Shown here: piece after piece, positions 26,026 through 32,402 of the stretch
Numbering within the stretch: position 1 is the stretch's first letter
Layout of the letters: each line of letters opens with the position of its first letter
Source of the DNA: Candidatus Saccharimonadales bacterium
Lineage (GTDB): Bacteria; Patescibacteriota; Saccharimonadia; Saccharimonadales; EFPC-124
Assembly (NCBI GenBank): GCA_050730875.1
Contig: JBOHNX010000002.1
Location: forward strand, 92,805 to 156,804
Direction of reading: 5' to 3'
DNA length: 64,000 nucleotides
The notes under the pieces: generated by a model
What the model was told of the DNA's origin: nothing
The model's input: the letters and a program-made list of their open reading frames with translations, nothing else
Database searches by the model: none
Translations under genes and position numbers: made by a program

Positions 26026-26313
26026 CTATTGTTGTGGATTACTACTCGGGAGATACACAAACAAGGTCACCGCATTGTTAGTAACCTTCACAATGCCGTC
26101 TTCAATTGGAAACCGCAGCTCCTGGCCAGGGGTGCTGACCACAATGTCGCCCTTGCTCAGCAACGAAAAAAAGTTCGCGTGGTTGGCCAAAACATCGAAC
26201 GGTCCCACTTTGTTGACCGCCGAAACCGAATGCGCCGGACCTTCGTAATAGGTTTGCGACGGCGAAAGTATTTTTACCTGGAGCTTGGGGTCACCTTTAA
26301 ACTTCATGGTCAA
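26026..26313 (-). CDS. atpC: F-type ATPase epsilon subunit (beta-sandwich domain only)
   Basis: 95 aa. Last gene of the operon, overlapping the atpD stop. [15 protein letters not shown]...[17 protein letters not shown] fits the epsilon N-domain. No C-terminal helical hairpin. Confidence 0.7.
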
Positions 26314-27611
26314 ATCAAGATTTCTTCAATACCGCGCAGCGTTTCTTCGCGCGTGAAGTACTCACCTTTACGGCCGGTTAGCTCTTCCGTCACAAAAAAG
26401 GACTGTGAAAAGAAGTTGATAATTTTTTGAGCGCGCTCAAAATCGCGGCGTTCGTCGAGCGAAAGTTCGCTCTGGCCAATAATGGCAATGATATTTTTAA
26501 GCGAATCGTATTTTTGCATAATTTCCTGCACGCGCGTGGCAAGCACGTAATGCCGGTCGCCGACGATATCTGGCGAAAGCATGGACGAGACAGTGCGAAT
26601 AAGATCGACCGCTGGCCGCACGCCACTTTCGGCAACAGTACGCGAAAGCACCACAGTTGAATCGAGCTGCTGGGCAATCTCTTGTACAGCCGGATCGCTT
26701 AAGTCATCTGCCGGGATATAAATTGCCTGTACGGCTGTGATTGAGCCGTTTTGGTTCGAGGTGAGTCTATCCTGCAGGCGCCTCAGGTCCGAGAACAGGG
26801 TTGCCTGGTAACCACCCTCACTCGGCATGCCTCCCAGGGTAGTAGCGAGTTCGTTGTTGGCTTGCACATAGCGGTAGATGTTGTCGATAAACACTAGCAC
26901 GTCGCGCTTTTCGGCGTCGCGCAAATATTCGGCAATGCTTGCGGCTGAATAGCCGACCAACGCGCGCATAGCTGGTGTCTCGTGCATCTGACCCAGCAGC
27001 ATCACCGTTTTTTCTAAGATCTTGCGCTCTTTGAGCGTTTGGTAGAGTTCGTGACCCTCGCGAATACGCTCACCAATGCCCACAAACATCGCCAGTTTGC
27101 TTTCGTCTTTGGCAATGTTGTGGATTAACTCCATAGTCAGCACGGTTTTGCCAACGCCGGCGCCACCAATAATGCCGATTTTGCGCCCTTTGACAAATGG
27201 CGTGAAGAAATCGATGGCTTTAATGCCAGTTTCCAGCAACTCAGGTTTTGCGCCCAAACCATCCGTAGGTGGAGAGGTGGCGTAAATGCTGCGCCTGGTT
27301 TTGGCCTCGATTGCCGGACCACCGTCGATTGGTTCGCCAAATGCATTCAATACCCGCCCCAAAACCGCTTTGCTTTCGGGCACACTGAGAGTACTCTTGG
27401 CCGACGCGACTTCGGCGCCACGGCGCACCTCGGAGCTACCGCTCAGGTTTATGCAGCGCGCTGTGTACTGAGTTGGGTAGGTCGCGACTTCCAACCACAC
27501 GCCTGGATTATCGGCCAATACCAACAATTCTTTTGGCGCTGGCCGCTCGCCTGCTAACTGCACTTCGCACACCAGCCCCTTGATAGACTTAACACGTCCT
27601 ACTATATCCAC
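26310..27611 (-). CDS. atpD: F-type ATPase beta subunit (short, 433 aa)
   Basis: Walker [21 protein letters not shown] sits at the DELSEED position. The C-terminus is about 30 aa shorter than typical beta subunits. Confidence 0.85.
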
Positions 27612-28447
27612 GGGCGTATCACTTTCGTTATTTCTTTTAATCGTTCGTCGCCTTCGGCACGCTTGGCTCTGTGGTACTGCAAACCAAAACTGGTTACAAG
27701 GTCTTTGGCACGACGCTTGGCGCGGCTCATAGCATTAAAACGGTTCGCATATCCGGCTAACTTGGACTCCATCACAATTTGCGTCAGCGCGACACCCATC
27801 ATGACCGATTCCATATAATCGGCGATTTCGTTAATACCAGGCTCAAAAATGTAGTCGCGGCTGCTGACTGTTTCGCCCTCCTCGCCAACGTCTTCACCTA
27901 AACCGCACACAGCCGACACGAGGTCGATATGCGCTACTTTTTGCTGACGCAGCGATTCGTAGGTTTGGTAGAAGACTTTAATTTGATCGTAGTCATCAAG
28001 CACCCGAATCATATCCCCTACGTCAAAACTAATGTCACTCGTCGGAAGCGAAAAAGTAGTAGTCGGGGTGATGCCATGTTGGTGCAGGAGGCGCGTTCCG
28101 AGAGAGCCGACCGCAATAACGTCTGTTTTGTCAGGCGTGCGATATGCGGCAACGAGTTCGCTTATAATACCCTCAGTTGTCTCGCCGCCCAGCTTTCCTT
28201 CGGCGGTCACGGCTACCAACACGTTTCGCCCTTTTTTGGGGCGCTTGTTCCGAGCGAGGCGTTCTTTGGGGTCAACGCGCAGGCTGCGGTAGACCGGCCA
28301 CAGCTCGGCAAAAAACGCCTTGCTGGCAACCACGCGGTTGCGAACCTTGGCAATGTGCAAACTAGCGATGCTTTCGAATACTTCTGTCAGGTCTTCGATA
28401 GTGTGGATTTGGTTGAGTTCTTGTTGGATGGATATCGCTCGCCTCAT
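27602..28447 (-). CDS. atpG: F-type ATPase gamma subunit
   Basis: 281 aa between alpha and beta. N- and C-terminal helices ([11 protein letters not shown]..., ...[16 protein letters not shown]). Confidence 0.7.
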
Positions 28448-30951: not shown

Positions 30952-31782
30952 CTAAGTTGTTAAGATCAAATATATAGCAATAAGCGTAAGCAGTAAAATA
31001 CCGATGATCGTCAGACCAACCTCAAGCAGGCCTTTTCGGACGGCTACTTCAGAAAGCGGGTTACGGCCAATCGAGATAATGCTCGATTTTACGGCCGAAT
31101 AAAGCAACGCTAAGATGCTCGCAAAGGCAAGGACCAGCGCACCGGCTGCGATCAACACACGCACCGGCGAGACCTGGTGGCCGGCGATGTTATTGGCAAA
31201 GTCTTGCAGAAAGCCTGGCAGAAATGTTGAACGATCATCGGGCGATGCATAGAATGTAACGTTTACCTGTACCGGTATCAGCCCGACACGTACCAGTTGC
31301 TGCCTGCCCTCCCGGTCAGTTATAGTGCGTTCGGTCGGTTTTGCGCCACTAAGATCTGCCTGGGCCGTACCAACAATTTGGATACTGTCGGTCGCCTTCA
31401 TGCCAACCCCAGCGATGGGCGAAGCCGTAATTTTATCGCCCGTCTTTACCTCGCCGTTAATATCGCTGACGAGAGCCAGCGTAAGCCCGCCTGTTACAAC
31501 CTGAACCGACTTACTATCTTGCGATAATTCAATCAGGGGCTTCTCAGCAACAACACCTATGAGCTGATCGGTCCGCTCTATATTGCCAAGTTCAACAGTG
31601 TTTGGGCTCCCTGGTTTTAAGCTCATCAAAGCACCGGTAGCCACATCTGTTTCAGACGTTTGAAAACCCTGGGCGATCGCCCCACGGCCTTCGGCTTTCA
31701 GGGGTACATTCGTCACGCACAGCAAAATAATCAGGACGACTCCTAGGCTTATGTACCCTATTTCTGTGGCGTAACGACGCAT
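30952..31782 (-). CDS. hypothetical membrane protein occupying the atpE position (signal/TM, about 190-aa beta-rich ectodomain, C-terminal two-helix hairpin)
   Basis: The ATG at 31782 (MRRYATEIG) is preferred. C-terminus LIAAGALVLAFASILALLYSAVKSSIISIGRNPLSEVAVRKGLLEVGLTIIGILLLTLIAIYLIL. Confidence 0.55.
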   Translation of the reverse strand: MRRYATEIGYISLGVVLIILLCVTNVPLKAEGRGAIAQGFQTSETDVATGALMSLKPGSPNTVELGNIERTDQLIGVVAEKPLIELSQDSKSVQVVTGGLTLALVSDINGEVKTGDKITASPIAGVGMKATDSIQIVGTAQADLSGAKPTERTITDREGRQQLVRVGLIPVQVNVTFYASPDDRSTFLPGFLQDFANNIAGHQVSPVRVLIAAGALVLAFASILALLYSAVKSSIISIGRNPLSEVAVRKGLLEVGLTIIGILLLTLIAIYLILTT

Positions 31783-31874
31783 GAGCAGCAACACTGCCGG
31801 CCCTTGATTAATATGGTTATGATTATAGCGTACTTTCTGGGCGCTTGGAGTATAACAACCCACCCAAGCGTTTG

Positions 31875-32402
31875 TTACTGTTTGGCTTGTTTGATAGCCT
31901 GAACGACTTTGCTGTCGTCCCTGAGATTTTCCCAAAAGAGAACTTGGTCGCGGCTAACATGCATAGCGTCTTCAGGGCCATGCAATTCACTCCCCAATTT
32001 TGCGAGCGAAACCTGCGGTTGCTCCCCAGACTTTTGTTGGGCCGGTTGAATCGGTTGCTGTACCTGTAGGTAGTAAATTTCACTGAGTTTTACATAGCTA
32101 TCGTTAACGTCAGTCAAGCGCCCAAAATAGACCTGGCCGTTGGTCAAGAAAAGTGCCTGGTATTGGTTGGTTTTTACCTCGGTATTACCTTTGGCCGACC
32201 ACAAGAAGTAGCCGCCAACCGCCAAAAGTAGTAGTACAGTTGCAATAACGACATGTACAATCCACCACTTTTTCCCATTTGGTTGCTGCCACGAAGTAGC
32301 CGGACGGTCGCCAGATGGACGCACTGCTTGCGGCTGCGTGGGCTGGGCGCCACGGTTATCACTTGGTTGAGAATTAGCTCTAAAATCCATACGTTTCCCC
32401 AA
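31875..32402 (-). CDS. hypothetical membrane-anchored protein (occupies the atpB position)
   Basis: 175 aa. Disordered N-terminus, one TM (WWIVHVVIATVLLLLAVGGYFLW), then NGQVYFGRLTDVNDSYVKLSEIYYLQ...ELHGPEDAMHV. Confidence 0.55.
   Translation of the reverse strand: MGKRMDFRANSQPSDNRGAQPTQPQAVRPSGDRPATSWQQPNGKKWWIVHVVIATVLLLLAVGGYFLWSAKGNTEVKTNQYQALFLTNGQVYFGRLTDVNDSYVKLSEIYYLQVQQPIQPAQQKSGEQPQVSLAKLGSELHGPEDAMHVSRDQVLFWENLRDDSKVVQAIKQAKQ

Follow-up and report, generated by a model that had tools for sequence, protein, structure and literature searches.

A divergent F1-like ATPase gene cluster without a and c subunit genes, with lineage-specific membrane-protein and surface-fibre genes as neighbours, in Candidatus Saccharimonadia

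A gene cluster from a Candidatus Saccharimonadales bacterium was found to encode the head, shaft and peripheral stalk of an F1-like ATPase, with no genes at the locus for the a and c subunits of Fo. The cluster lies in a 64,000-nucleotide stretch of contig JBOHNX010000002.1 (assembly GCA_050730875.1, forward-strand positions 92,805 to 156,804), which is referred to here as the window and whose numbering is used throughout. This F1-like ATPase without Fo is conserved across a large uncultivated class, the Candidatus Saccharimonadia, and is masked by routine annotation. The evidence comprised the gene content of the locus, the conservation of the catalytic motifs, the remote homology of two stalk subunits to b and delta, the absence of a and c genes from the locus, predicted protein folds and synteny. 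The explanation that we favour, with moderate confidence, is that its product is a rotary ATPase of F1-like type, non-respiratory and lacking Fo, which is uncoupled from the proton-conducting a and c subunits and probably acts at the cell surface.

The original prediction, which was made from the DNA alone, had placed eight open reading frames (ORFs) between positions 26026 and 32402. All eight were recovered at these positions on the minus strand, and the gene for a giant fibre follows them on the same strand. The two membrane proteins encoded at the upstream end were designated p175 and p276. From upstream to downstream, and with expectation values (E) for the Pfam matches, the genes are:

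31875-32402, minus strand: p175, a single-pass membrane protein with a small beta-barrel; ORF confirmed
30952-31782, minus strand: p276, a protein with a membrane helix or signal anchor, an ectodomain and a C-terminal two-helix hairpin; ORF confirmed
30328-30939, minus strand: b-like peripheral-stalk subunit, with a membrane helix at the N-terminus and then a long coiled coil
29861-30331, minus strand: delta-like subunit, in which a C-terminal OSCP-type domain is the sole recognisable part
28444-29868, minus strand: F1-like alpha subunit (PF00006, E 3e-64), with the Walker A motif GDTKSGKS
27602-28447, minus strand: F1-like gamma subunit (PF00231, E 9e-27)
26310-27611, minus strand: F1-like beta subunit (PF00006, E 2e-65), with intact catalytic motifs and SELSLDE in place of DELSEED
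26026-26313, minus strand: F1-like epsilon subunit (PF02823, E 5e-13), consisting of the beta-sandwich only
18992-25930, minus strand: giant membrane-anchored surface fibre or adhesin of 2312 amino acids, with Kelch repeats and CBM_4_9

Overlaps of 4-10 bases were present at the b/delta, delta/alpha, alpha/gamma, gamma/beta and beta/epsilon junctions. The p276 gene is separated from the b-like gene by 12 bp and from the p175 gene by 92 bp, and the giant fibre gene lies 95 bp downstream of the epsilon gene on the same strand. In the NCBI annotation p276 is identical to the hypothetical protein ACREGJ_03780 and p175 to ACREGJ_03785, with the start of p175 taken as the ATG at 32390 (171 amino acids). 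A scan for promoters and terminators gave counts near the shuffled expectation and was silent on the limits of the operon.

The cluster was compared with approximately 190 loci from Saccharibacteria, for which flanking sequence was included on both sides (up to 10 kb, depending on the length of the contig); individual loci are cited by their handles (L and a number). The gene order b-delta-alpha-gamma-beta-epsilon, which had been described as the canonical atpF-H-A-G-D-C order, was kept in 119/119 loci that contained all six genes, and the layout is therefore not due to chance. In the synteny counts given here and below, approximately five loci were counted twice (same contig). In most loci the six genes were present as uninterrupted ORFs.

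Subunits alpha, beta, gamma and epsilon matched F1 families in both Pfam and NCBIfam, and all scored below the NCBIfam equivalog cut-offs. Alpha scored 386 and 401 bits against the atpA models (cut-offs of 484 and 554), beta 459.1 bits against atpD (cut-off of 462.85), gamma 72 bits (cut-off of 194) and epsilon 46 bits (cut-off of 67), the epsilon match covering positions 2-78 of the 130-position model. The scores of alpha and beta were higher on the canonical atpA and atpD models than on the N-ATPase or mycoplasma F1-like models. The unusual alpha Walker A motif that had been read from the window proved to be a family-wide signature, GD(S/T)KSGK(S/T) as opposed to the canonical GDRQTGKT; a Walker A motif was found in 71/71 alpha sequences and the Arg-finger motif in 59 of these 71. 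In beta, the P-loop GGAGVGKT and the GER..EG motif were present in all family members (75/75), which argues for a working ATPase rather than a decaying copy.

The truncations that had been noted in beta and epsilon were also found, and extended to their families. The beta C-terminus, which had been estimated to be about 30 residues short, is approximately 28 residues short; across the family 46 residues follow the position of the SELSLDE motif, compared to 74 in canonical beta. Epsilon has 95 residues here and a family median of approximately 104, compared to 140 in canonical epsilon; its C-terminal helical domain is missing and the N-terminal beta-sandwich is all that is present. Since the short beta and epsilon subunits are common to the whole family, they reflect neither random decay nor an accident of one genome. 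In the NCBI annotation the beta gene (26310-27611, minus strand) has a later start, which gives a protein of 420 amino acids named 'F0F1 ATP synthase subunit beta'; the 433-amino-acid form is present in a Logan assembly. The public names give no hint that this beta family differs from canonical atpD.

The b-like subunit had no match above noise in the curated libraries Pfam and NCBIfam. The delta-like subunit matched Pfam OSCP with an E of 0.007 over profile positions 66-165, and scored 16 bits against the NCBIfam delta model (cut-off of 57.5). For both proteins a PHROGs search was uninformative. Profiles of the two families, built from 72-74 members from related loci, were aligned by hhalign with the b and delta subunits of 17 canonical operons. 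The delta-like family aligned with canonical delta at a probability of 91% (E 1e-6) over the 105 columns of the C-terminal OSCP domain, and the b-like family with canonical b at a probability of 73% (E 3e-5); swapped b/delta controls gave 0.2%. As judged from these profile alignments, the b-like and delta-like proteins are real but remote homologues of b and delta. An N-terminal membrane helix was present in 67 of the 74 b-like family members. The b-like protein has lost this helix in one clade, to which the cultured strain TM7i belongs (L017, L018, L028, L029, L030 and L044), so that the stator there would need another membrane anchor.

Searches for the a and c subunits were carried out with profile hidden Markov models (HMMs) built from 21 canonical operons that had been recovered alongside the beta search, and with phmmer seeds. 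On the 21 canonical operons, as controls, the a HMM scored 184-384 bits and the c HMM 80-118 bits. The a HMM found nothing better than an E of 0.65 in the window or in any of the approximately 190 Saccharibacteria loci; the c HMM gave only noise (E ≥ 0.4) at these loci and nothing in the window. In two short flanks from contigs of the same organism, neither gene was found by HMM search. The proposal that the operon is without a and c genes was therefore upheld. Its portrayal as the F-type ATPase operon of the organism, stripped of these genes, needs to be changed, since the cluster is most simply read as a second, paralogous one and relatives have a canonical operon.

Southlakia epibionticum has a complete canonical operon, AtpZ-a-c-b-delta-alpha-gamma-beta-epsilon, with a full-length epsilon and with Pfam scores far stronger than those of the present cluster (Wang et al. 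2023, PMC10633639 supplement). In a BlastKOALA survey (PMC12592800 Table S5), a, b and c are listed once and alpha, beta and gamma twice in the complete genomes of Ca. Saccharimonas aalborgensis, GWC2_44_17 and Ca. Mycosynbacter amalyticus; TM7x and RAAC3 have one of each subunit, and several CAILAD01 bins have alpha, beta, gamma and epsilon without a, b or c. The F1-like cluster was present in a metagenome-assembled genome (MAG) of a Ca. Saccharimonas sp. (L088) and in the complete TM7i genome (L044). The simplest reading of these data is that the cluster is a second, paralogous and divergent F1-plus-stalk set, distributed widely across Ca. Saccharimonadia. On the same reading a canonical F1Fo and the F1-like cluster occur together in many Saccharibacteria, others have just one of them, and S. 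epibionticum and TM7x have the canonical operon only; the presence of two systems in one genome rests on the tables of PMC10633639 and PMC12592800. Two MAGs, GcC11-16 (L139 and L167) and SMAG_U6217 (L146 and L204), each contained two p276-linked F1-like operons from different clades, which could reflect either true paralogy or two strains mixed in the bin.

The position directly before the b-like gene is occupied by p276, for which 1539 homologues were found. There was no curated-family match, the results from PHROGs and NCBIfam being uninformative; Pfam gave a weak match to the XM1 gp53 minor capsid protein. An AlphaFold2 model based on 120 homologues (mean predicted local distance difference test score, pLDDT, of 84) consisted of a helix at residues 2-24, a beta-rich domain at 36-174, a short helix, and two hairpin helices at 206-240 and 242-275, consistent with the earlier description of a terminal two-helix hairpin in the protein that fills the atpE slot. 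In Foldseek searches of the PDB the beta-rich domain matched phage decoration or cement proteins and the C-terminal autochaperone of phi29 gp12 with E values of 3e-5 to 7e-4 (8pkh, 8hdt, 5wk1 and 3gqh; sequence identity of 12-19%). When p276 was compared with the predicted viral structures of BFVD, pre-neck appendage and tail-fibre C-terminal domains were matched at an E of 1e-8. The p276 domain has the same predicted fold as these phage decoration and autochaperone domains, but here both of its ends are anchored in the cell membrane and its gene is part of a cellular operon.

The loop of the hairpin, G-R-N-P, was the same in all of 206 sequences, and past the Pro the protein continues for 34-35 residues to its end. 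The loop is predicted to face the cytoplasm and the ectodomain to be extracytoplasmic. In the p276 protein of the window, Glu residues lie 3 and 12 residues past the loop Pro and the GxGxGxG motif is absent; both had been raised as caveats, and both hold across the family. In operon-linked copies, the residue 12 past the Pro is Gln in 36/57 and Glu in 15/57. Acidic residues are nearly absent from positions 13-30 past the Pro (104 copies), with Asp or Glu at position 17 in 3/57 operon-linked copies and at position 29 in 1/47 standalone copies.

This hairpin shares with the F-type c subunit (PF00137) its length, its topology and a polar R-N-P loop facing the cytoplasm, and the R-N-P tripeptide is also found in mitochondrial c subunits. 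It differs in that p276 is extended at the N-terminus by 200 residues, which contain a further membrane helix and the ectodomain, and in that the membrane carboxylate (approximately 18 residues past the Pro) is not kept. There was no match of the hairpin to Pfam PF00137, no c subunit at E ≤ 10 in a profile search of PDB sequences, and no c subunit among the top Foldseek matches of p276 in the PDB. Alignment of the hairpin with the c subunit by hhalign gave a probability of 5% (P 0.007), with the loops in register (R-N-P with R-Q-P), and the c HMM gave repeated, very weak matches to the p276 family (E 2-8). Homology of the hairpin to c was rejected on the Pfam result, the 5% hhalign probability, the PDB profile search and the missing carboxylate. 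In the absence of significant profile similarity, GxGxGxG and a conserved carboxylate, the likeness of the hairpin to c is confined to shape and topology; the resemblance to a c subunit that had been pointed out held for shape, topology and the R-N-P loop, but not as homology. The p276 family is also multi-copy and is paired with surface-fibre genes as well, a further point on which the earlier interpretation needs to be changed.

For p175, 2213 homologues were found, which, where named, were from Saccharimonadales; there was no match in Pfam, NCBIfam or PHROGs. The AlphaFold2 model (pLDDT of 74) showed a disordered N-terminus, a membrane helix at approximately residues 43-69, and a small beta-barrel, for which Foldseek gave weak Sm/LSm-like matches (E ≥ 2e-3). 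The idea that p175 might be a degenerate a subunit was rejected on account of its single membrane helix and Sm-like barrel. Structure prediction, which had been suggested as a check on p276 and p175, therefore gave each its own fold, resembling the phage decoration and gp12 autochaperone domains in p276 and an Sm-like barrel in p175. In the sampled loci p175 was found only beside the F1-like operon and never beside standalone p276 copies. Its position and strand varied; the gene lies directly before the b-like gene in L124 and after epsilon in L132 and L173.

The layout was conserved in relatives, as had been proposed for checking. Among the 117 loci in which 1 kb or more of sequence was available upstream, the p276 gene was directly upstream of the b-like gene in 96 (approximately 80%). 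In a crude neighbour-joining tree of p276 the operon-linked copies filled the deepest clades, and the standalone paralogues formed a derived group next to the clade of the window. In 42/46 standalone cases p276 was followed, within 300 bp and in the same orientation, by the gene for a membrane-anchored fibre of 600-3300 amino acids. Fibres of this family are also encoded after epsilon in the clade of the window; in other clades a fibre homologue of approximately 340 amino acids lies downstream of epsilon, at a distance of between a few and a few hundred bases and nearly always on the other strand. Both p276 upstream and a fibre gene downstream were present in 69 loci, p276 only in 16, the fibre gene only in one and neither in 19 (Fisher p 2e-10, uncorrected for shared ancestry). 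Functionally, the giant fibre is probably partnered with p276 and the ATPase.

Several further observations were made on the p276 and fibre genes. Up to two extra standalone p276 copies were found per genome (for example in CP025011.1: L113 and L135); examples of standalone loci, with the match at approximately 10001-10800, are L084, L086, L092, L093, L096, L098, L113, L120 and L135. Short fibres beside standalone p276 genes contained DUF4082 and a weak H-type lectin match. The p276 ectodomain itself was detected twice near the C-terminus of a 1092-amino-acid fibre-like ORF (L093, 4154-7429, plus strand; hmmsearch E 2e-20 and 4e-9), and a second fibre ORF (L090, 2-2170, plus strand) contained it once; phage tail fibres have a comparable arrangement, with autochaperone domains at the C-terminus. 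In CP025011.1 a standalone p276-fibre pair (L135, 10774-15726) adjoins the type IV pilus genes pilB (T2SSE, E 3e-120) and pilC (T2SSF). A subgroup of operons starts at the b-like gene and lies between housekeeping genes, with metG, tatD and a cysteine desulfurase gene upstream and mnmA and alaS downstream; within 10 kb of these operons there is neither p276 nor p175 nor a fibre gene (L003, L011, L014, L020, L021, L026, L032, L034, L035, L039, L045, L047, L181, L185, L188, L189, L197 and L221).

The cluster was compared with known F1-type systems. With the canonical F1Fo ATP synthase (atpIBEFHAGDC) it shares the b-delta-alpha-gamma-beta-epsilon order, the catalytic residues (P-loop, catalytic Glu and the Arg finger of alpha), the gamma and epsilon shaft and a membrane-anchored b; unlike the canonical operon, its locus is without a, c or AtpI/Z, and lineage-specific membrane proteins take the place of a and c. 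The N-ATPase (atpDCQRBEFAG), which has its own a and c subunits together with AtpQ and AtpR and has no delta, was rejected because the gene order is different, a delta-like subunit is present and a and c are not. Scores on the alt_F1F0 (N-ATPase) models were below those on the canonical models and far below their own cut-offs.

The mycoplasma Type 2 and Type 3 'F1-like X0' ATPases, which comprise the gliding motor MMOB1610-1670 and the MMCAP2_0575-0581 / MSC_0618-0624 clusters found with MIB-MIP (Beven et al. 2012, PMC3369863), are the nearest analogue. The X0 clusters hold a protein with a signal peptide plus, at the C-terminus, two transmembrane (TM) helices and work with surface proteins (bioRxiv 10.64898/2025.12.04.692339). 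Both they and the Saccharibacteria cluster consist of an extra alpha, beta, gamma and epsilon set beside a canonical F1Fo in the phylum, without a or c, both have a tie, genomic or functional, to large surface proteins, and both occur in genome-reduced, host-dependent organisms. The AlphaFold2 architecture of p276 is like that described for MMCAP2_0577 and MMOB1650, a match of architecture only. The mycoplasma order is 12TM-small-gamma-epsilon-SP2TM-alpha-beta, whereas the Saccharibacteria cluster keeps the canonical order together with a b/delta stalk, and no 12-helix or other multi-helix membrane protein or small cytoplasmic subunit was found in it. Against the NCBIfam models beta scored 383 on MSC_0618 (cut-off of 570) and 347 on MMOB1670 (cut-off of 850), and alpha 264 on MSC_0619 (cut-off of 520) and 293 on MMOB1660 (cut-off of 600); the cluster thus falls outside these families by their own membership cut-offs. 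It is likely that the Saccharibacteria cluster arose independently of the mycoplasma F1-like X0 ATPases.

A non-respiratory F-type ATPase homologue has also been described in Omnitrophota, where it lies beside type-4a pilus genes, is described as distinct from prototypical ATP synthases, and has been assigned a proposed role in host-cell attachment or motility (Seymour et al. 2023, PMC10066038). Its beta subunit is reported to cluster with Ca. Saccharimonadia sequences (PMC10066038), so the Omnitrophota homologue may share a wider clade with the present cluster, and the odd beta subunits of Saccharimonadia have been glimpsed before. The neighbours differ: the Omnitrophota ATPase adjoins type-4a pilus genes, and the Saccharibacteria operon adjoins p276, p175 and the fibre gene. 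Within 10 kb of the F1-like operon pilB- or pilC-like ORFs were found in only 2/145 loci, so that a pilus adjacency of the Omnitrophota type was not seen.

In the explanation that we favour, an F1 head (alpha3beta3), a shaft (gamma and epsilon) and a peripheral stalk (b-like and delta-like) would together form a second copy that has diverged from the canonical synthase. ATP hydrolysis most likely drives the complex; without a and c a proton gradient is not convertible, which makes hydrolysis rather than synthesis the likely direction. The b-like membrane helix and the delta-like cap would hold the stator at the membrane. The work of the shaft may be passed to p276, the best candidate for its membrane partner, and perhaps also to p175, through contact of gamma and epsilon with the cytoplasmic G-R-N-P loop of the hairpin. 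It would then reach the surface, where the p276 ectodomain is proposed to meet, and act on, the membrane-anchored fibre or adhesin that is encoded alongside. An output at the cell surface is suggested by the nearby fibre genes and by the fold of p276, which in phage fibres serves for trimerisation and as a chaperone; likewise, the lack of proton-channel genes and the position between a small membrane protein and a giant fibre gene indicate that the complex probably drives a surface process. In function it would be similar to the mycoplasma F1-like X0 ATPases of Types 2 and 3, by which gliding legs or the MIB-MIP system are powered. A more specific version of this mechanism is distinctly unlikely, namely that p276 forms a ring by means of its c-like hairpin, replaces the c-ring under the shaft and moves an extracellular beta-tulip-type ring and the giant fibres by rotation or power stroke. 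If true, it would mean that a rotary ATPase had been repurposed to move an external appendage in an ultra-small epibiont, independently of the mycoplasma gliding motor.

Several points weigh against a proton-uncoupled ATPase that acts at the surface. Approximately one-fifth of the operons have no p276 or fibre gene alongside (for example L047, L035 and L020), and p276 has standalone, fibre-paired paralogues with no ATPase nearby, so that its main role may concern the fibre alone. The counts for the co-occurrence of p276 and fibre genes are not phylogenetically independent and include a few duplicated loci. The structural models are of monomers, and the tie of p276, p175 and the fibre to the ATPase is a putative one; neither p276 nor p175 has detectable sequence homology to the mycoplasma X0 subunits. 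For the source genome itself we infer the canonical operon only from its relatives. The best-studied strains, S. epibionticum and TM7x, lack the cluster.

Four other explanations were weighed. If the cluster were the F1-plus-stalk half of an ordinary, proton-translocating ATP synthase it would assemble with a and c subunits whose genes lie at another site in the genome, as happens in organisms whose atp operons are split. This would fit its canonical gene order, its real though remote b and delta homologues, its intact catalytic motifs, the a and c genes found elsewhere in several Saccharibacteria genomes, and the F0F1 subunit labels that these proteins carry in NCBI and IMG. However, where a, b and c are present they come with a full operon of their own (S. 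epibionticum) and it is alpha, beta and gamma that are then duplicated, while the CAILAD01 bins have F1 genes without a, b or c. In addition, no subunit reaches its equivalog cut-off, epsilon is truncated, as is the C-terminus of beta, DELSEED is lost, and conserved lineage-specific membrane partners occupy the a and c positions; we regard a split synthase as very unlikely. Some of the same features, the sub-cut-off scores and the short beta and epsilon, might be expected of a decaying duplicate of the atp operon to which p276 and p175 are unrelated neighbours, and the canonical ATP synthase is dispensable in S. epibionticum. This explanation is strongly disfavoured, to the point of being hardly credible, by the thousands of intact homologues across the class, the catalytic motifs (75/75), the strict gene order (119/119), the six uninterrupted ORFs in most loci, the family-wide nature of the truncations and the conservation of the flanking partners.

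The remaining two explanations concern the role of p276. Its hairpin could be a true, highly derived c subunit that forms an ion-free rotor ring carrying an extracellular domain, the ring turning the F1-like shaft or being turned by it. This would account for the atpE position of p276 directly before b (96/117 loci), the c-like topology and helix lengths with 34-35 residues past the Pro, the invariant R-N-P in register with R-Q-P by hhalign and the weak c HMM matches (E 2-8). It is nevertheless unlikely, given the hhalign probability of only 5% (P 0.007), the lack of PF00137 and of any c subunit in the PDB profile search, and the lack of a conserved carboxylate and GxGxGxG; moreover, the ectodomain fold forms trimers in phages, and the loop is also unchanged in standalone paralogues, which have no ATPase next to them. 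In type III secretion, F1-type ATPases with b/delta-like partners serve export, and the cluster could similarly be an export or assembly ATPase, like FliH/FliI/FliJ (homologues of b/delta, alpha/beta and gamma), that energises the insertion, export or trimer assembly of the fibre with p276 as a membrane chaperone. The resemblance of the p276 ectodomain to the phi29 gp12 autochaperone and to phage tail-fibre C-terminal domains, its presence at the C-terminus of Saccharibacteria fibre ORFs and the pairing of p276 with fibre genes in 42/46 standalone cases are all in keeping with such a role. An export function is improbable all the same, in that no export-gate homologue was found at the locus, the complex would be an alpha/beta heterohexamer with epsilon rather than a FliI-type homohexamer, scores on the FliI/SctN models were far below those on atpA and atpD, and standalone p276-fibre pairs have no ATPase of their own.

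Surface-serving F1-like ATPases that are uncoupled from protons are so far known experimentally only from mycoplasmas, and a December 2025 preprint calls the F1-like X0 ATPases specific to that group (bioRxiv 10.64898/2025.12.04.692339). The Saccharimonadia cluster would be a comparable and apparently independent solution, in which the b/delta stator is kept and the membrane and surface partners are new. Literature searches returned no description of the composition of the cluster, of p276 or p175, or of the link to fibre genes. In public annotation and in KEGG-based surveys these genes are recorded as nothing more than 'F-type ATPase', a practice that inflates what is concluded about aerobic respiration, or about proton-motive ATP synthesis, in Patescibacteria. 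A motor that acted on the giant adhesin-like fibres would have a direct bearing on the way in which epibionts attach to or move on their hosts. Cultured carriers make the system testable, namely TM7i, in which the cluster was found here, and Ca. Mycosynbacter amalyticus, in which it has been reported.

Other genes were noted in the surroundings of the cluster. A Fur-family regulator gene (32520-32933, plus strand) is divergent from p175, and a low-affinity iron permease gene lies nearby (33627-34037, minus strand). Downstream of the giant fibre gene are the genes for a 146-amino-acid single-pass protein without a family match (18510-18950, minus strand) and for an 826-amino-acid membrane-anchored protein (15912-18392, minus strand), the C-terminus of which resembles that of the giant protein (90 bits). 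A secreted-protein cluster is located at 50586-54408 (minus strand), and one of its members has a WxL-interacting peptidoglycan-binding domain and LysM. Comparable clusters encoding secreted proteins of 240-500 amino acids were found a few kb from the F1-like operon in L008, L017, L147 and L153.

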